The notes: generated from the letters alone by a model not told the origin. DNA of 30,570 bases from a virus (UHGV-0106128); one strand, 5' to 3'; counted from the stretch's first letter, positions 1-30,570 are shown. Numbers and translations are program-made.

Positions 1-103
1 GTTAGCAACGGGCTGGCTGGAAGTGTTTTTTAACCTGCTGTTCTGCGTGCTGGTGATACGCGCACGCGGGAACGTCACAAAAATCTTTCCATTGTTGAGG
101 TGA
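1..103 (+). CDS. 3' end of an upstream ORF (partial), hydrophobic C-terminus; possibly holin or other lysis membrane protein
   Basis: Open frame from position 2 ending at TGA 101-103 (...LATGWLEVFFNLLFCVLVIRARGNVTKIFPLLR); sits directly upstream of the endolysin gene; function inferred from position only. Confidence 0.3.
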   Translation, partial: LATGWLEVFFNLLFCVLVIRARGNVTKIFPLLR

Positions 104-105
104 AT

Positions 106-483
106 ATGTCGGGTAAATTCAGATTCAGCCGTCGCAGTGAAAAAAATCTGGAGGGCGTTAAACCACAGCTGGTTGCTGTCGTTCGCCGTGCGCTGGAGCT
201 GACGGAGGTTGATTTCGGTATTACGGAAGGGCTGCGCACGAAAGAACGCCAGAAACAGCTGGTCGCGGAAGGGAAAAGCCAGACCATGAACAGCCGCCAC
301 CTGACCGGTGATGCGGTGGATGTTGTTGCCTGGGTTGGCAGCCAGGTGTCATGGGACTGGCCTCTGTACGAGAAAATCGCGCAGGCATTTAAGCAGGCTG
401 CCGCAGAGCTGGGAACTGCCATCGAATGGGGCGGGGACTGGAAAACACTGAAAGACGGGCCTCACTTTCAGTTGAAACGCTGA
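106..483 (+). CDS. endolysin, peptidase M15 family (zinc peptidoglycan peptidase of the VanY/L-alanyl-D-glutamate peptidase type)
   Basis: ORF track 100..483; ATG 106 preceded by GAGG 97-100; motifs SRHLTGDAVD and GGDW...DGPHFQ fit the His-Asp-His zinc site of M15 endolysins. Confidence 0.85.
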   Translation: MSGKFRFSRRSEKNLEGVKPQLVAVVRRALELTEVDFGITEGLRTKERQKQLVAEGKSQTMNSRHLTGDAVDVVAWVGSQVSWDWPLYEKIAQAFKQAAAELGTAIEWGGDWKTLKDGPHFQLKR

Positions 484-1083: not shown

Positions 1084-1875
1084 ATGAGCGAGAAATTGAA
1101 GATCGTCTATCGCCCGTTACAAGAACTATCTCCGTATGCACACAATGCCAGGACACACAGCCCTGAGCAGGTGGCACAACTGGTAGAAAGCATTAAGCAA
1201 TTCGGCTGGACTAATCCAGTGCTGATTGATGAAAAGGGCGAAATTATTGCGGGTCACGGTCGTGTTATGGCGGCTGAAGTGCTCAAAATGGATTCGGTTC
1301 CGGTCATTGTTCTGTCTGGTCTGACGGATGACCAAAAAAAGGCGTACCGCCTGGCAGATAATCGCCTGCCGATGAATGCTGGCTGGGATGAAGATCTGTT
1401 ACGGATGGAGCTGTCGGACCTAATCAATGCTGATTTTGATGTCTCCCTGACAGGATTCAGCCCAACAGAAATTGATGAATTGTTGACGGATGTTTTGCCA
1501 GGTACAGGAAATGAGGAGGAGCCGTACACGACGAAAATTGATACGCCTGTTTATGAGCCGTCAGGCGATAAACCGGATATCAGTGAACTGTGCGACGATA
1601 CGAAAACTCAGGAGCTGGTCAGCCGGATACGTTCGGCGTCCCTTGAGCCTGATATCGAAAAATTCCTCCTGTGCGCGGCAGAACGTCACACGGTGTTTAA
1701 TTTCAGCAGAATTGCGGACTATTACGCTCACGCCCCCGCTGAAATTCAGAACCTTTTTGAGGAGTCGGCGCTGGTGATCATTGATTATCAGCAGGCTATT
1801 GAAAATGGATTTGTCCGGATGACGCAGCGCATGGTGGAGATCATGCATGGCGGGGAGGAGGAGGAATATGCGTGA
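1084..1875 (+). CDS. ParB-like nuclease domain (ParB/Srx fold) protein
   Basis: ORF track; GAGG 1074-1077 then ATG 1084; N-terminal region VYRPLQELSPYAHNARTHSPEQVAQLVESIKQFGWTNPVLIDEKGEIIAGHGRVMAA matches the ParB N-terminal domain pattern including the GxGR box. Confidence 0.8.
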   Translation: MSEKLKIVYRPLQELSPYAHNARTHSPEQVAQLVESIKQFGWTNPVLIDEKGEIIAGHGRVMAAEVLKMDSVPVIVLSGLTDDQKKAYRLADNRLPMNAGWDEDLLRMELSDLINADFDVSLTGFSPTEIDELLTDVLPGTGNEEEPYTTKIDTPVYEPSGDKPDISELCDDTKTQELVSRIRSASLEPDIEKFLLCAAERHTVFNFSRIADYYAHAPAEIQNLFEESALVIIDYQQAIENGFVRMTQRMVEIMHGGEEEEYA

Positions 1876-2800
1876 TGATTTTTGCGCCTTTATTCTGACT
1901 CACGGGCGCCCGGACAAAGTTCTGACTTACCGGACGTTGCGTCGTGCTGGCTATACCGGAAAAGTTTTTATCGTTGTTGATGATGAAGATAAGACACGGC
2001 ATCAGTACATAGCTGAATTTGGTGAACAGGTGCTGGTGTTTTCCAAAGCCGATATAGCCAGTCGTTTTGACGAAGCCGATAATTTCGGTGATCGCCGCTC
2101 AATTTTTTACGCCCGTAATGCCTGTTTCGACCTGGCAAAACTGGTCGGGTGTAAATACTTCATTCAGCTCGATGATGATTATCACGAGTTCCAGTTTCGG
2201 GTGGATCGCAACTATGACCAGGCCTATTTCCCGATAAGAAAACTGGATGCGATCCTTTCTGAAATGCTGGCGTACTACGAATCAATACCTGCGCTTTCCA
2301 TCGCTATGTCGCAGGGCGGGGATTTTCTTGGTGACAATGGCGGCCATGCTTCGTGGGTGAAACGCAAGGCAATGAACAGCTTTATCTGTTCGGTTGATCG
2401 ACCGTTCTCATTCATGGGGCGCATTAACGAGGATGTGAATACGTACACGAATCTCGGTCGCTGTGGTGAATTGTTTATGACGATCGGTGCTGTCCAGTTA
2501 GGGCAGAAACAGACGCAGAAAAACAGCGGCGGAATGACCGAGCTGTATCTGGATTCCGGAACCTACGTTAAAAGTTTTTACTCCGTCATGTATGCGCCCT
2601 CGTGCGTAAAAATCTCACTGATGGGGGCCAGCCATAAACGCATTCACCATCAGGTCACCTGGAACAACGCTGCAGTAAAAATCCTTCACGAAAAATACAG
2701 GAAGAAGACACCCTGCATATCAATGGGGGTGACAAATGATTCCGTATTCGAAAGTCGAGTCTCTGGCAGCGTGCCGGATGACTGCACAACAAATCGCTGA
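1868..2800 (+). CDS. GT-A fold (GT2-like) glycosyltransferase, substrate unknown
   Basis: ATG 1868 preceded by GGGGAGGAGGAGGAA 1853-1866 (the ORF-track start 1847 is less likely); motifs FILTHGRPD, KVFIVVDDEDKT and ARNACFDLAKLVGCKYFIQLDDDY fit the GT2 pattern (IIPTYN-like, VVDDgStD-like, arNxGxxxAxGxYixfLDaDD-like). Confidence 0.6.
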   Translation: MRDDFCAFILTHGRPDKVLTYRTLRRAGYTGKVFIVVDDEDKTRHQYIAEFGEQVLVFSKADIASRFDEADNFGDRRSIFYARNACFDLAKLVGCKYFIQLDDDYHEFQFRVDRNYDQAYFPIRKLDAILSEMLAYYESIPALSIAMSQGGDFLGDNGGHASWVKRKAMNSFICSVDRPFSFMGRINEDVNTYTNLGRCGELFMTIGAVQLGQKQTQKNSGGMTELYLDSGTYVKSFYSVMYAPSCVKISLMGASHKRIHHQVTWNNAAVKILHEKYRKKTPCISMGVTNDSVFESRVSGSVPDDCTTNR

Positions 2801-2987
2801 CGTTCTGGATGTTGATCTGAACCGACTGAAAGAAAATCGGGAAGCAATGACAGATTTTTACGCATCCATCCGTAAGGGCAGAGCGAAAGGTGAAGCCGAA
2901 CTACGGGCGGCATTGTTTAAGCTTGCCAGAAAAGGGGATGCCTTTGCCCTGCGTGAACTACTCAGGGTGGATAAAAATCAGGACTAA
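2736..2987 (+). CDS. small HTH-like protein, possible DNA-binding or packaging accessory protein
   Basis: ORF track; GGGGGTGA before ATG 2736; MTAQQIADVLDVD resembles a helix-turn-helix; function not established. Confidence 0.45.
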   Translation: MIPYSKVESLAACRMTAQQIADVLDVDLNRLKENREAMTDFYASIRKGRAKGEAELRAALFKLARKGDAFALRELLRVDKNQD

Positions 2988-2990
2988 CTG

Positions 2991-4082
2991 ATGAGCAGAC
3001 CGGACTGGGGGGCGTTGCAGCAGGAATATATTGCTGAATACACCCGCTCCGGTGTATCTCCGGTGGCATGGTGTGAGGCAAGGGGACTGAATTACGCAAC
3101 AGCCCGTCGTTACATCAAAAAACCTCCGAAAAATGCGCAGACAGAAATGCGCAAAACTGCGCAACAAAGTGCGCAGAAAAAATCTGCGCAGACTGCGCAA
3201 AAGCGGAACGGAAAATCTCAGAAAAAAAAGCCAGTATCCGATGCGTGCCTGAATGAGGGCGACGCGGAGGAATTTTCGTTCTGCCCCGATGAATTCGGCA
3301 TTTCTGACCAGCAGGCTAAGTTTGCGATGCTTGTTGCTCAGGGGAAAAAGCCGACAGAGGCATACCGACTGGCTGGTTATGAGGGGCAAGGTGCGACAGC
3401 TAACAGCAACGCCAGCCGTATGCTTAGAAATGCCAGGGTTTATCGTGCTATCAGCTACTTCCGCAATCAGTATCAGAAACGCTATACCGCAGACCTGGAT
3501 TTACTGGTGAGTCAGTTGATGGCTATTGTCCAGGCCGACCCCAATCAGTTGGCACAATTTCGCCGTGTTAACTGCCGTTATTGCTGGGGCGAGAATCATC
3601 TCTACCAGTGGCGTGATATTGCAGAATTCGATAAGGCAGCGGCACAGGCCTCCAGAGATGGCAAACCCGAGCCGGAATATGGAGGCCTCGGCTTTGTTGA
3701 TAACGCCATACCCAATCCGGATTGTCCGAAGTGCTGCGGTGAGGGAACGGGACAGCTTTATATGGCTGATACCACTCTGCTTGATGGGGATGCGCGACAA
3801 TTATATGCAGGGGCAAAGCTCGGGAAATTTGGTGTTGAGATCCTGCTGGAGGATAAGGCTGCCGCCCGGCGCGAACTTATCAAGCTGATAATGGCGACGA
3901 AAGGAAGTTCTGCTGGTGGTGCAACTGACAGTCGCAATGATCTGGAGCTTGAAGGACTGAGGCTTCGCAACGAAAAGCTGCGCACTGAGATTGAAAACCT
4001 CAAAAAAGGCGTGGGTGGTGAGAATAACGAAATAATTATCCACAACTCTCTGCCGATGCCGGGAGTGGATAATGTCGATTGA
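2991..4082 (+). CDS. terminase small subunit (P27-type), with a C-terminal Cys4 cluster and coiled coil
   Basis: ORF track; AGGA then ATG 2991; N-terminal HTH; segment QQAKFAMLVAQGKKPTEAYRLAGYEGQGATANSNASRMLRNARV resembles the terminase small-subunit core; lies directly upstream of and overlapping the large subunit. Confidence 0.7.
   Translation: MSRPDWGALQQEYIAEYTRSGVSPVAWCEARGLNYATARRYIKKPPKNAQTEMRKTAQQSAQKKSAQTAQKRNGKSQKKKPVSDACLNEGDAEEFSFCPDEFGISDQQAKFAMLVAQGKKPTEAYRLAGYEGQGATANSNASRMLRNARVYRAISYFRNQYQKRYTADLDLLVSQLMAIVQADPNQLAQFRRVNCRYCWGENHLYQWRDIAEFDKAAAQASRDGKPEPEYGGLGFVDNAIPNPDCPKCCGEGTGQLYMADTTLLDGDARQLYAGAKLGKFGVEILLEDKAAARRELIKLIMATKGSSAGGATDSRNDLELEGLRLRNEKLRTEIENLKKGVGGENNEIIIHNSLPMPGVDNVD
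3134..3199. repeat. array of six TGCGCA hexamers at 9-15 bp spacing inside the terminase small-subunit gene
   Basis: TGCGCA at 3134, 3148, 3158, 3170, 3185 and 3194; encodes the Q/K/A-rich linker TEMRKTAQQSAQKKSAQTAQK. Confidence 0.6.
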
Positions 4083-5400
4083 AATCTACCTCCCAAAACC
4101 TCATGAGGGGCAAATAGCTGCATGGACGGCGGCAATAGAGGAACGCTTCCACGCGGTATGCTGTGGTCGTCGCTGGGGTAAAACGGTGATGCTGGTAAAC
4201 ATCGCTACCAGTTTCGCTACGCGGAAATTTGCCGTTCCTACCACCGGGCAACTTATCGCGGGTAGGGTGGGGATTTTTACCGCACAATACCGCCAGTACC
4301 AGGAAATCTGGGATGAAATTAGCGCCGTTCTGCAACCGCTGATCCTCAGCCAGTCAAAAAATGAAAAGCGCATTATTCTCCGTAATGGGGGGCGCATCGA
4401 CTTTTGGGTAACGGACAATAACAAACTGGCCGGGCGTGGGCGTAAATATCACGCTGTGCTGATTGATGAGGCAGCATTCACTAAATCGCCGGAAATGCTC
4501 GAGGAAATCTGGCCCCGAGCTATACGCCCGACGCTTGTCGATTACCGCGGCTGTGCGTGGGTATTTTCCACACCAAACGGTATCGACGAGAGCAATTTTT
4601 TCTACGCGATATGCCACGATGAATCCCTGGGATTTGTCATGCACCATGCGCCAACTTCATCGAATCCGTATATTCCGAAAGAAGAACTGGAGGAAACGGA
4701 GAAGAAATCCGATCCGCGCGTCTGGCAGCAGGAATATCTTGCAGAGTTCGTGGACTGGTCCAAAGACGCGTTACTCGATGTCGATAAGCTGCTGGTGGAC
4801 GGTCAGCCGATTGAGATGCCGCCGTACTGCGACATGATTTTCGCAGTGATGGATACGGCGCTGAAAGGCGGGACCGAAAATGATGGTACTGGCGTGGTGT
4901 ATTTCGCTTATGAGTCAACGTATTCGGACGAGCCAAAACTGACGATTATTGACTGGGATGTGACGCAAATTAAAGCGTCATTGCTTCCTGAATATATCCC
5001 CGGCGTTTATGACAACCTCGAGCGCCTCGCGAAATTATGCCGTCCGCGTCTGGGCTGCCAGGGCATTTTTATGGAAGACGCCGCGATGGGGGCAATCCTC
5101 AACCAGAAGGCGGAAACCGAAGGCTGGGATATGACGCCGATTAAATCGGCACTAACCAGCAAAGGTAAAGACGAACGGGCGGTGATGGCATCCAGCTACC
5201 ACTATCAGGGGATGTGCAAAATCGTCCGGGAGGCTTACGACAAGACCGTTTCATTCAAACGTACCACCGCAAACCACCTCATAAAACAAATCGCCGGATT
5301 CCACCTGGCGGATAAAAACGCGCATAAACGTGCTGATGACCTTTTCGATTGTTACACCTATGGGTTGATCATCGCGCACGGTAATTACGCGGCGTTGTAA
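4072..5400 (+). CDS. terminase large subunit
   Basis: ORF track; Walker A-like CCGRRWGKT, Walker B-like AVLIDEAA, C-terminal nuclease-like region; overlaps the small-subunit stop (ATG 4072, TGA 4080-4082). Confidence 0.9.
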   Translation: MSIEIYLPKPHEGQIAAWTAAIEERFHAVCCGRRWGKTVMLVNIATSFATRKFAVPTTGQLIAGRVGIFTAQYRQYQEIWDEISAVLQPLILSQSKNEKRIILRNGGRIDFWVTDNNKLAGRGRKYHAVLIDEAAFTKSPEMLEEIWPRAIRPTLVDYRGCAWVFSTPNGIDESNFFYAICHDESLGFVMHHAPTSSNPYIPKEELEETEKKSDPRVWQQEYLAEFVDWSKDALLDVDKLLVDGQPIEMPPYCDMIFAVMDTALKGGTENDGTGVVYFAYESTYSDEPKLTIIDWDVTQIKASLLPEYIPGVYDNLERLAKLCRPRLGCQGIFMEDAAMGAILNQKAETEGWDMTPIKSALTSKGKDERAVMASSYHYQGMCKIVREAYDKTVSFKRTTANHLIKQIAGFHLADKNAHKRADDLFDCYTYGLIIAHGNYAAL

Positions 5401-20890: not shown

Positions 20891-20905
20891 ATGGAGGAGA
20901 CAAGC

Positions 20906-22066
20906 ATGGAAAATTTTGCAAATAAGTTAAAAATACACACAGAGCATGTTGCAAAAATGGGGGTGTTTTGTACAACTGAAGAAACGACAAAACAAGCACT
21001 CATTATGCCATTTCTAGATATTCTTGGTTTTACTCCGTATGATCCAAGAAAAGTCAAAGCTGAGTATAGTGCTGACTTCCCCGGGGTTAAGGCTAATGAA
21101 CGGGTTGATTACGCTTTATTTTGTCATGATGTTCCTGTGATGTTCATTGAGGCGAAATCGTTTTCAGAACAAATTGATAATCACTGCCCACAGCTATCAA
21201 GATATTTTAATTCAACACCGGAAGTTACTATATCAGCCATTACAAATGGTGTTGAATGGCGTTTTTTTACGGATTTGAAACAAAAAAACATAATGGATTC
21301 AACGCCGTTTTTAAAAATAAGAATGGATTCTCTAACTCACTCCGATATTACACAATTATTTCGTTTTCGTTATGATAAATTCAAACCAGAGGCTTTGCGG
21401 ACACTGGCTGAAGAAAGTGTTTATTTGAATTCATTTACTAAAACAATCAGTTCTAGTCTTCGTGAAGTTGATCTGGAGTTTGTTCGATATGTTGCTAGTC
21501 GTTCAAATATTGAGAGACAACTTAATCAGAGATTTCTTGAGTTCGTGACTCCATTAGTTAAACAGGCCGTTGAGCGCGCTGTTAGCGCAATGGTGGTTTC
21601 CGGGCTATCTACACAACCGGTAGAGCAAACTAAAGAAAATGATGCAACGGATACACAAGTTAATAACGCCATTGTTGATGAAGAAAACCCCAACATAATA
21701 ACCACAGCCAAAGAATTGGAACTATTTGAAAGGGTAAAACAAATCATACAAACAGAAGATAATATAGAATATAAAGATACTGAGTCATATTTTGGTGTAC
21801 TATTGAATGGTAAAACTAATAGATGGCTGTTAAGATTTTATGATAAAAAATCTTCATTTATAACATTACCTATTTCGCTTAGTGAAGTTCAGTTGAATGA
21901 AATAAGACGAGCTCGACTTGATACGGATGGTAAAAGGATACATATAACTAATCCGGAAGATATACTTCGCATATCTGGTTTGATTCTGGATTCATACGAG
22001 TATGTTAAAAATGATGATAATTTCCGCCGAGGGTCCAGAGTGAGCAGTTTAGAAGAGGTTGAATAA
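20906..22066 (+). CDS. 386-aa protein with N-terminal PD-(D/E)xK nuclease-like domain (type I restriction HsdR N-terminal-like); C-terminal ~250 aa unassigned; candidate defence gene
   Basis: ORF track 20891..22066; GGAGGAG 20893-20899 then ATG 20906; visibly AT-rich; motifs PFLDILGF, ERVDYALF and VMFIEAKS (D68, E82, K84); flanked by a promoter-like sequence and an intrinsic terminator. Confidence 0.75.
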   Translation: MENFANKLKIHTEHVAKMGVFCTTEETTKQALIMPFLDILGFTPYDPRKVKAEYSADFPGVKANERVDYALFCHDVPVMFIEAKSFSEQIDNHCPQLSRYFNSTPEVTISAITNGVEWRFFTDLKQKNIMDSTPFLKIRMDSLTHSDITQLFRFRYDKFKPEALRTLAEESVYLNSFTKTISSSLREVDLEFVRYVASRSNIERQLNQRFLEFVTPLVKQAVERAVSAMVVSGLSTQPVEQTKENDATDTQVNNAIVDEENPNIITTAKELELFERVKQIIQTEDNIEYKDTESYFGVLLNGKTNRWLLRFYDKKSSFITLPISLSEVQLNEIRRARLDTDGKRIHITNPEDILRISGLILDSYEYVKNDDNFRRGSRVSSLEEVE

Positions 22067-22106: not shown

Positions 22107-23333
22107 ATGTCAGAAATACCAATTACTATGACCAGTGCGGGGGCGCAGCCTACGCCACCCAATGATTTGCTCGCGAATCTTATCACCAGAGTTGCCGAAA
22201 AAGTACCTGGATATACAGCCAACCTTCCGGCGGGGCTTATTACAGACCTTGCCAGCACGGCTGTCGGGGCGCTGGCATTAATAGACCAGGCGCGGGTGGA
22301 CCTTATTAACTCCGTAAGCCCATACGGCGCAAATATTCCGTTACTGATGCAACTCGGAAACATTTATGGAGCACAGAAGGGATTAAGTACAAATACGGCG
22401 GTATACGTGGTGTTTGAGGCGTTGCCGGGGTTTGGTATCCCTAAAGGATTTGTTGTCGGTGACGGCAACTACCAGTATGCAGTTTCCCGCGATACGGTGG
22501 TGCCGGAAAGCGGGCAGACTGAGCCAGTCTACTGTGTGGCCACAACGTCAGGCTCATGGGCTGTACCGGAAGGAACCGTAACGCAGGTCATTACATCGGT
22601 ACCCAAAGATCAGCCTGTAAAATGCACGAACCTTACCGCAGGGATGCCAGGTCAGGAGGCGCAAACGTGGGCATCTTACCGCGCCGAAGTCATGGAGTCC
22701 GGCATGTTTGGTGTGCAGGGAACACCGGATTGCTTTAAAGCGATGCTCAAATCAGTAAGCGGTGTGCGAGAAAACCTGATTTCTTTCCGGCAGTCGTCGC
22801 TGGGGAAATGGGTTGCGGTTGTTGGTGGCGGTGATCCGTATGATGTGGCTTATGCTATTTACAAATCTGTACCGGATATTTCGAAACTGACCAACGATGT
22901 TAGCAATCCATCTGGTGCGGCAGTGGAAAAACGCACGGTTTCAATAACCGTTTCGCCAGATGTTTATCAGGTGCCGTTCGTTATCCCGTCATCACAAAAC
23001 GTCATGGTGCTAATCACCTGGAACACTGTATCTGATGATTATGTTGATCCGGCGGGTATTGCTATGGCTGTGCAGCAAAACGTTGCTGATTACATCAATT
23101 CTATTGAAGTCGGACACCCGATAAATCTGCTGCGAATCCAGGATATTTTTACCAGTTCCGTCAGATTGTTGGTTGATGCGACGTTGATCTCAACAATCAG
23201 TGTGAGCATTGGCATTAATGGCCATATTGTTCCTCCGGCAAAAGACACAAGCCTGGTTTATGGCGATACCTATTCCTATTTTTCGACGGTGGTATCACAG
23301 GTTCAAGTTAACAAGTATGCAATATCTGACTGA
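22107..23333 (+). CDS. baseplate J-like protein (Mu gp47 / P2 gpJ family)
   Basis: 408 aa; GGAG then ATG 22107; N-terminal region fits the Baseplate_J pattern (GYTANLPAGLITDL..., LMQLGNIYGAQKGLSTNTAVYVVFEALPGFGIPKGFVVGDG). Confidence 0.7.
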   Translation: MSEIPITMTSAGAQPTPPNDLLANLITRVAEKVPGYTANLPAGLITDLASTAVGALALIDQARVDLINSVSPYGANIPLLMQLGNIYGAQKGLSTNTAVYVVFEALPGFGIPKGFVVGDGNYQYAVSRDTVVPESGQTEPVYCVATTSGSWAVPEGTVTQVITSVPKDQPVKCTNLTAGMPGQEAQTWASYRAEVMESGMFGVQGTPDCFKAMLKSVSGVRENLISFRQSSLGKWVAVVGGGDPYDVAYAIYKSVPDISKLTNDVSNPSGAAVEKRTVSITVSPDVYQVPFVIPSSQNVMVLITWNTVSDDYVDPAGIAMAVQQNVADYINSIEVGHPINLLRIQDIFTSSVRLLVDATLISTISVSIGINGHIVPPAKDTSLVYGDTYSYFSTVVSQVQVNKYAISD

Positions 23334-29492: not shown

Positions 29493-30008
<516 letters not shown>

Positions 30009-30035
30009 TTAGATCAAAGGAGGAAGAATAAGCAG

Positions 30036-30059
30036 AAAAAGCCCGCCATAACAGCGGGC
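30036..30059 (-). terminator. rho-independent terminator downstream of the porin gene
   Basis: Plus-strand AAAAA-GCCCGC-CATAACA-GCGGGC directly 3' of the porin stop on the minus strand. Confidence 0.5.
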
Positions 30060-30067
30060 AGGAGGAT

Positions 30068-30570
30068 TTAGAACTGATAAACCAGACCTAAAGCGACAAT
30101 ATCATCGGTAGAGATGCCGTTGGCAGCGTAGAAGCTGTCATCTTCATCCAACAGGTTGATTTTATAGTCAACATAGGTGGACATGTTTTTATTGAAATAG
30201 TAAGTCGCGCCAACATCGGCGTATTTAACCAGATCTTTATCATCAACACCTGCCGGGTTGTCTGCACCACCGGCAGCGTGCAGGTCACGGCCTTTAGACA
30301 TCAGGAAAGAGACTGCCGGACGCAGACCAAAATCAAACTGGTACTGTGCAGTAACTTCAAAGTTCTGGGTTTTGTTAGCAACAGCATAATCGCTGTCGCC
30401 AAACGGGGTCATATTACGCGTTTCTGAATACATGGTTGCCAGGTAAATATTGTTAGCATCGTATTTTAGCCCAGCAGTCCACGCGTCTGCTTTATCACCA
30501 CCCGCCGCAGTATGGTTAACCTGGTCATTGGTGCGGTCAGAAGAGGTGTATGCCGCACCAGCGCTAAAGC
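30068..30570 (-). CDS. ompN: outer membrane porin, 3' part only (OmpC/OmpN family); gene continues beyond the window
   Basis: C-terminus ...[16 protein letters not shown] and beta-barrel pattern typical of general porins; adjacency to uspF suggests ompN; stop TAA at 30068-30070 on the minus strand. Confidence 0.6.

Follow-up and report, generated by a model that had tools for sequence, protein, structure and literature searches.

The small terminase subunit gene (terS) in a 30,570-nucleotide stretch of viral DNA (UHGV-0106128, referred to in its entirety as the window) carries six copies of the hexamer TGCGCA within 66 bp. Comparison with related genes and analogy to phage P1 suggest that this array is probably the pac (packaging) recognition site of the phage, with a build like that of P1 but with a different word and only a single cluster. 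The original prediction had named the array as a candidate packaging recognition site inside terS, a proposal that is supported by the co-variation of the word with a predicted N-terminal helix-turn-helix (HTH) domain of the protein (TerS), by the homology of that domain to the PacA proteins of phages D6 and P1, and by a position equivalent to that of the P1 pac site (PMC10028697). The features on which the argument rests are as follows.

2991..4082, + strand: terS, small terminase subunit, 363 aa, Pfam Terminase_2, with an N-terminal predicted HTH, a disordered Lys/Ala/Gln-rich linker, the Terminase_2 core, and a C-terminal tail
2991..3122, + strand: predicted HTH-coding part of terS, residues 1-44 (...GLNYATARRYIKK), proposed reader of the array, from the AlphaFold2 model and hhalign
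3123..3290, + strand: part of terS coding for the flexible basic linker, approximately residues 45-100, which holds the array, from the predicted local distance difference test (pLDDT)
3134..3199, unstranded, 66 bp: TGCGCA array, proposed pac recognition site, with A-rich spacers and words at 3134-3139, 3148-3153, 3158-3163, 3170-3175, 3185-3190, and 3194-3199
3148..3153, unstranded: second TGCGCA word, in a different codon phase, aTG-CGC-Aaa = Met-Arg-Lys
3354..3923, + strand: Terminase_2 core of TerS, residues 122-311, the best-scoring Pfam stretch
4072..5400, + strand: terL, large terminase subunit, presumed nuclease/ATPase partner, Pfam Terminase_6N (E 4.7e-5)

The hexamers form a single dense cluster

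TGCGCA is its own reverse complement, and exact matches begin on the + strand at 3134, 3148, 3158, 3170, 3185, and 3194 (terS nucleotides 144-209), with start-to-start distances of 14, 10, 12, 15, and 9 bp. Six copies at 9-15 bp spacing in about 70 bp of terS had been predicted, and all six were found to be exact and to fit within 66 bp. The window as a whole contains 12 copies as compared to 12.3 expected from shuffles, with half of them in these 66 bp. Since the total is close to the shuffle expectation, the anomaly lies in clustering and not in overall abundance, and simple enrichment of TGCGCA was rejected as an explanation. A given 70-bp stretch would hold six or more copies with a Poisson probability of ∼6e-13, and all other hexamers stay at four copies or fewer in every stretch of that length. 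Outside the array TGCGCA occurs at chance density, and a search of the window for a second cluster, with one mismatch allowed, found none. The surroundings are rich in A, which makes up 46% of 3117-3235 as compared to 27% of terS overall. The array region encodes ...KNAQTEMRKTAQQSAQKKSAQTAQK..., and five of the six copies are read as xxT-GCG-CAR (x-Ala-Gln).

Constraint falls on the DNA word

Codons of TerS residues 43-75 were resampled synonymously with the window's own codon usage. Six copies of TGCGCA were obtained in 0 of 200,000 resamples and five copies in 8 of 200,000, and in 20,000 trials there was no hexamer of any sequence that reached six copies. When 17 diverged genes from all classes of array (class A being that of TGCGCA) were resampled in the same way, the observed count was mostly reached in 0 of 20,000 trials, the weakest case being phage 933W with 194 of 20,000. 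For diverged homologues that carry TGCGCA, the observed count was reached in 0-13 of 20,000 trials.

Homologues from Serratia, Klebsiella, Buttiauxella, and Superficieibacter share 36-59% identity with the window in the C-terminal part of TerS and keep 4-6 copies of TGCGCA. Across these four genera the word is found in all three codon phases, and both the spacers and the encoded residues differ. Serratia fonticola has five words, read as SAQ, MRN, AAQ, LRT, and TAQ, Superficieibacter has four, and Buttiauxella has four, one of them read as Cys-Ala. The Klebsiella prophages, at the lower end of the range with 36% identity, have six (TAQ, TAQ, PAQ, LRT, TAQ, and CAE), and one Klebsiella gene by itself uses all three phases. 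Within 45 distinct class-A genes, the reading of TGCGCA is xAQ in 188 cases, xRx in 44, and CA in three, and in an eight-lineage alignment of diverged homologues the words make up most of the invariant columns of the linker. Because TGCGCA is kept in three phases, across genera, and beyond what synonymous resampling yields, selection acts on the DNA word and not on the protein alone. Such constraint at the DNA level had been suspected from the window alone, and comparison with related terminase genes, which had been proposed as a check, bears it out in that the word is conserved and the encoded amino acids vary.

Closer relatives show how the array changes over shorter distances. Among 83 loci of the E. 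coli type, 23 array variants were found with 4-6 intact words, copies 2 and 6 being the most often degraded (to TGTGCA, TGCGTA, TGCACA, or TGAGCA), and indels of ∼12 bp alter the number of copies between relatives. These indels, together with the imperfect periods of 24 and 36 bp that Tandem Repeats Finder reports in the array region and the predicted disorder of the linker, would be in keeping with an origin without any DNA function, in which the words are a by-product of a repeated K-x-A-Q peptide or of slipped replication or gene conversion in a linker of low complexity. Such an origin is very improbable and was rejected, as the words stand in three codon phases and encode unrelated peptides (xAQ, M/V/L-R-x, and C-A), persist, with diverging spacers, across genera whose TerS C-terminal parts are 36-59% identical, and exceed what a protein-only constraint produces in synonymous resampling. 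Moreover, other N-terminal modules have other words at the same place.

Disrupted forms of the gene were also encountered. The terS of Rac-SA53 (L001, KU052037; 3912..4940) is a deletion fusion that has lost its HTH-coding part, and its N-terminus resembles the start of the open reading frame (ORF) at 100..483 of the window (Peptidase_M15_4). The junction lies within the array, just upstream of the word matching the window's second, and three of the five remaining words are point-mutated (TTCGCA, TGCGCT, and TGCCCA). The genes for a ParB-domain protein, a TET-associated glycosyltransferase (TAGT), and an 83-aa product were lost as well. This natural deletion counts in favor of the proposed pac site with the HTH as its reader. 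Separately, many database proteins of 66-90 aa (P0029, P0046, P0052, P0062, and P0093) come from terS genes frameshifted in the array region, with the words read as LRK, MRR, or CAK; for P0052 alone, 62 contigs are on record. Decay of the prophages or slippage during sequencing may account for these entries.

Word and N-terminal domain of TerS change together

A survey of 128 distinct genes, the counts of which are not phylogenetically independent, gave the following pairings of N-terminal motif and word.

Y[AV]T[AG]RRY[IV]K (in the window ...YATARRYIK), 45 genes: TGCGCA, 4-7 copies; TGCGAA never
Y[AS][ST]AKRYIK (...YSTAKRYIK with TGCGAAT), 61 genes: TGCGAA/TTCGCA, 4-9 copies, often as the palindrome TGCGAATTCGCA
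...KALRYMA, 13 genes: GGGGCA and then inverted TGCCCC, 4-6 copies
...SHTxIN, 6 genes: GTTTCC(AC) and then inverted GGAAAC
...NTARTRIK (Shiga toxin (Stx) phage 933W), 3 genes: GATCAT, 4 copies, with an exact 12-bp period

Two unrelated N-terminal modules pair with GTTTCCAC/GTGGAAAC and with GGGGCA/TGCCCC, and the plain Terminase_2 TerS genes (L011-L016) have neither an N-terminal module nor an array. Phage pPE4 has a Terminase_2 core 95% identical and a TerL 99% identical to those of the window, but both its HTH and its word are different, and homology between the two terS genes starts only at 3284. Conversely, the Klebsiella prophages have a core that is only 36% identical to that of the window but the same HTH and the same word. 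Loci with the TGCGCA module carry differing types of TerL, and the loci of Buttiauxella, Klebsiella, and Yersinia lack the ParB, TAGT, and 83-aa genes but have arrays all the same (TGCGCA in the first two, TGCGAAT in Yersinia). In the sequences compared, the word thus varies with the N-terminal HTH and not with the Terminase_2 core, TerL, or the neighboring genes. This two-way dissociation between pPE4 and Klebsiella, together with the variety of TerL types, led us to reject the Terminase_2 core and TerL as readers of the word.

Within the recognition helix (window residues 34-44), residue 36 is Asn with words that have a GATC core (P1, 933W, and D6), Ala with TGCGCA, and Ser with TGCGAA, and the change R39K goes with the switch from TGCGCA to TGCGAA. 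The pattern at residues 36 and 39 may represent a recognition code, as read from few independent lineages. Hybrid arrays were observed in viral contigs L180, L184, and L190 (terS nucleotides ∼130-280), in which a ...YSTAKRYIK helix is followed by 5-6 copies of TGCGAA/TTCGCA and then, downstream, by three or four copies of TGCGCA. The pPE4 record itself (PP818812, L002, 'Actinobacillus phage vB_Apl-pPE4') lists Actinobacillus pleuropneumoniae as host, and this assignment looks doubtful, unless the transfer was very recent.

The different arrays also bear on the notion that palindromic words form RNA or single-stranded DNA hairpins controlling terS translation, mRNA stability, or replication. 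RNA from 3115-3215 folds at -37.7 kcal/mol, with a z-score of -6.3 as compared to shuffles, and the class-B array likewise folds better than shuffles (z -2.7). However, the arrays of classes A', C, and D show no gain in folding over shuffled sequence (z -1.3, -1.1, and -0.65) and consist mostly of direct repeats unable to pair with one another. Hairpins would account for the palindromic classes only, and the sole Rfam hit is a chance match (E 0.78, 12.7 bits as compared to a gathering score of 50). Since palindromic words always self-pair, the fold of the window's array is uninformative. A role for RNA structure is highly improbable and was rejected, given that a strong fold is expected of any palindromic word, that classes A', C, and D have none, and that Rfam was negative.

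A PacA-like domain as the proposed reader of the array

Residues 122-311 of TerS match Pfam Terminase_2 (PF03592) with 36.8 bits against a curated cut-off of 26.1 (E 7.6e-9). RefSeq annotates identical genes in E. coli genomes as terminase small subunit, and the start of terL overlaps the end of terS by 11 bases. N-terminal to the core, the AlphaFold2 model of TerS has helices at residues 6-20, 24-31, and 35-38, with a pLDDT of 79-88 for residues 1-40. The linker is predicted to be disordered, with a pLDDT of 45-53 from residue 51 and values below 50 for segments 64-79 and 82-87. Residues 1-44 are predicted to form an HTH. The top Foldseek matches of the N-terminal model are HTH DNA-binding domains (DeoR, sigma region 4, LuxR-type regulators, and IstA transposase), and 44 aligned relatives all share the same recognition helix. 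For the class-A N-terminal domain, Pfam gave no match and the PDB no solved relative by sequence, and a homologue search with full-length TerS returned only near-identical proteins.

By hhalign, the profile of this HTH aligns residues 1-44 with residues 1-44 of D6 PacA (probability 96%, E 5e-9) and, less strongly, with residues 3-41 of P1 PacA (probability 60%, E 8.5e-5), and the two PacA proteins are homologous over their full length (BLASTP E 2e-9). The first 50 residues of TerS match PacA solely at the PacA N-terminus, and PacA residues 10-44 have sub-threshold matches to HTH_23 and HTH_28. A scan of viral contigs with P1 PacA returned only relatives that were at least 94% identical. The bodies of the proteins differ, as PacA has no Terminase_2 match and the body of the window's TerS is a Terminase_2.

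Pac sites inside terS, and the hexamer pac site of P1, are textbook knowledge. P1 pac comprises 161 bp inside pacA with seven TGATCA/G hexamers in two groups and an integration host factor (IHF) site and the cut between them; synonymous recoding of the hexamers reduced the P1 titer ∼9-fold, and their methylation by Dam controls cleavage (PMC10028697). In the P1 record, we found eight matches to TGATC[AG] at pacA nucleotides 194-380, directly 3' of the HTH-coding part and in two codon phases, with the annotated cleavage sites at nucleotides 276-285. We group P7, JK004, and D6 with P1. Cronobacter phage JK004 has other linker residues but still seven TGATC[AG] words, and the words of the D6 array are GGATCAT/ATGATCC, which contain GATC. 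Like P1, the window has several palindromic hexamers in a small-terminase gene, both words fit TGnnCA (TGATCA/G in P1, TGCGCA in the window), and in both genes the words start a few codons after the N-terminal HTH-coding sequence and occupy more than one codon phase. Given the homologous HTH and the equivalent position, the window's array corresponds to the P1 pac hexamers both in place and in evolutionary origin.

A mechanism consistent with this arrangement would be as follows. The extra N-terminal HTH of TerS (residues 1-44) would be tethered to the Terminase_2 core via a disordered basic linker of ∼50 residues, and the DNA coding for that linker would carry six copies of the word read by the protein's own HTH. 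As a member of the Terminase_2 family, TerS would assemble as a ring, and several subunits of one ring could each dock one HTH per word, with linkers flexible enough to absorb uneven spacing of 9-15 bp and to allow asymmetric words to lie either way round. This multivalent complex would mark concatemeric phage DNA and position TerL for a nearby first cut, from which headful packaging would proceed. The Lys/Ala/Gln-rich linker peptide would then be mostly a side effect of the words and of the A-rich spacers between them. We infer the physical binding, the number of engaged subunits, the position of the cut, and the headful mode.

Co-variation establishes a relation between reader and site but not the purpose of binding, and the array could instead be an operator through which the TerS HTH or another regulator autoregulates terS/terL, by keeping its own message from being transcribed or translated. 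There is precedent in SPP1, where binding of TerS at pac also represses TerS synthesis (PMC6316719, citing Chai et al. 1997), so one array could serve both regulation and packaging. We nevertheless consider an operator unlikely, given that the homologous P1 arrangement is an experimentally defined cleavage and packaging site (PMC10028697), the array lies ∼140 nucleotides inside the coding sequence rather than at a promoter or ribosome-binding site, and the HTH domain is fused to a terminase subunit in all cases seen.

Several observations weigh against a pac site of the P1 kind. The words are not strictly invariant, as the commonest E. coli array variant (26 loci) has only four of six intact, and the genes counted in the survey share ancestry, as noted above. 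Assignment of residues 1-44 as an HTH rests on prediction: no Foldseek match of the N-terminal domain is significant (E > 1), as expected of so small a domain, and a match to IS66 TnpA HTH is, like the other family matches, sub-threshold. Homology to P1 PacA itself is no more than moderate, with D6 PacA needed as a bridge. P1 has two clusters flanking the cut and the window a single one; the IHF consensus WATCAANNNNTTR, sought in 2900-3500, is absent, unlike in P1 pac; and neither the window's word nor its array contains GATC, which means that Dam control of the P1 type cannot apply. For other pac phages, sequence-specific binding of TerS to pac has been hard to demonstrate in vitro (review, PMC9611059), and in the literature we found no experiment that maps where packaging starts or where the DNA ends lie in this family of phages. 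In a literature search that left most subscription journals outside its scope, neither this site nor its counterparts in Rac-like, Klebsiella, Yersinia, Erwinia, and Stx phages turned up, and neither did the co-variation between reader and word.

Prophage context

The prophage is Rac-like and intact, and the window is its late region. At its left end lies a peptidase M15 endolysin-like gene (ORF 100..483, Peptidase_M15_4). Downstream of terS are terL, a portal gene, and then ORFs including those for a baseplate J-like protein and a tail-fibre N-terminal domain. Other features are listed below.

1084..1875: ParB_N-domain protein (Pfam)
1847..2800: TET-associated glycosyltransferase, TAGT (Pfam, E 1e-34)
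2736..2987: 83-aa ORF, directly upstream of terS
20891..22066: 391-aa ORF, HSDR_N (type I restriction enzyme R subunit N-terminal domain), E 9e-14
22107..23333: baseplate J-like gene
29493..30433, - strand: host genes, universal stress protein and 3' part of a porin

We take the universal stress protein and porin genes to be like the host neighbors of Rac at its right end in E. coli K-12, and because of this resemblance the prophage probably ends before ∼29.4 kb. In close relatives, trkG lies upstream, as with Rac. The first 310 nucleotides of terS have matches at ≥90% identity in 889 of 5,426 complete E. coli genomes, and in E. coli EC11 (NZ_CP027255) these 310 nucleotides are identical to those of the window. 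The HSDR_N ORF belongs to the tail and baseplate region, where it sits just upstream of the baseplate J-like gene, and may be a moron or a defense-related nuclease.

The trio of ParB_N, TAGT, and 83-aa genes adjoins terS upstream and is found with the TGCGCA module in E. coli, Serratia, and Superficieibacter, whereas in Buttiauxella and Klebsiella the module stands without it. TGCGCA contains GCGC, and its association with these genes, along with the control that methylation exerts over cleavage at the P1 hexamers (PMC10028697), raises the idea that the word is a DNA-modification target of the ParB-like and TAGT products, as P1 hexamers are of Dam. We regard this as scarcely plausible. Full TGCGCA arrays exist in Buttiauxella and Klebsiella without the upstream genes, so modification of GCGC by them is not required, and any such dependence was rejected as a requirement. 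In addition, Pfam scans covering 25 of the window's long ORFs found no TET/JBP dioxygenase and no cytosine methyltransferase, and outside the array TGCGCA stays at chance density.

Implications for packaging specificity

To our knowledge, pac sites have been defined experimentally in only a handful of phages. More broadly than the site in the window, an HTH with an array of its word in its own linker might constitute a portable specificity cassette that sets packaging identity in enterobacterial temperate phages (Rac-like, Stx/933W-like, and P1/D6-like phages as well as Klebsiella, Yersinia, Serratia, and Erwinia prophages), with one word per TerS subunit and a recognition code, a generalization for which we see about even chances. 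Were it true, pac sites would be predictable from sequence and packaging could be re-targeted, and the arrays would provide the first comparative evidence of several HTH domains of one TerS ring engaging DNA sequence-specifically. The solution used by P1, an array of short words plus an N-terminal HTH of the small subunit, is not peculiar to P1. The modular design appears on at least three small-terminase bodies (Terminase_2 core, PacA, and the 933W type) with at least five co-varying pairs of reader and word, and besides the 889 of 5,426 E. coli genomes with the module, a related module is present in Shiga-toxin phages.

How small terminases of pac phages recognize DNA is described as unclear and controversial, and a 'nucleosome' model with multiple HTH domains as unsupported (PMC9611059). 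The arrays offer comparative evidence that points toward multivalent, sequence-specific reading by TerS. If confirmed, packaging starts could be predicted from sequence and, with them, the direction and reach of lateral transduction of neighboring host genes. Confirmation would likewise provide a tractable system with sequence-specific multivalent binding for the study of TerS-DNA recognition, and a route to re-targeted packaging for phagemid delivery, for which P1 sets a precedent (PMC10028697).

Comparison with other pac systems

Beyond P1 and D6, the window can be set beside other phages in which packaging involves terS. The SPP1 TerS, G1P, is presumably a Terminase_2 member, in which case its core belongs to the same family as that of the window. 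SPP1 pac (pacL-pacC-pacR) shares sequence with the 5' stretch of the TerS gene encoding the DNA-binding domain, and multiple contacts made by TerS position TerL (PMC6316719, PMC9611059). Neither an extra N-terminal HTH nor a hexamer array is described for SPP1 in these papers, the comparison being by description only. P22 pac and the P22 pac-like sites of Salmonella also lie inside the TerS gene and direct headful packaging (PMC9611059, PMC11260489). However, P22 pac is a single asymmetric 22-bp sequence (PMC9611059), whereas the window has a palindromic hexamer repeated six times, and its array is therefore not of the P22 type. The E. coli LF82 phage Gally has a mapped pac peak inside terS (bioRxiv 10.1101/2022.10.28.514194), but it was dropped as a parallel: its TerS of 140 residues has neither the N-terminal module nor a word array, so the peak is not informative on the site in the window.

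A likeness is also found in the Stx phage 933W (L0112; L202, AF125520, 1501..2307; also L203 and L204), for which we found no published pac site, nor for related Stx phages, in the literature. Its small terminase has an N-terminal HTH homologous to that of the window (37% identity, pairwise BLASTP E 1e-12) joined to a C-terminal body without a match to Terminase_2 or any other Pfam family. A 933W-like phage was classed as 'Mu-like' by PhageTerm on account of host DNA at its ends (PMC7946995), a class we judge compatible with in-situ headful packaging, although no pac site was mapped by it. In terS genes of the 933W type, the array consists of four (C/T)GATCAT(G) words with an exact 12-bp period, coding for IDHE-IDHK-TDHE-IDHD and containing the GATC Dam site as in P1 pac, and two TGCGCA/TGTGCA words follow ∼60 nucleotides past it. 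The 933W array thus sits at the same place as that of the window, and the main word differs.

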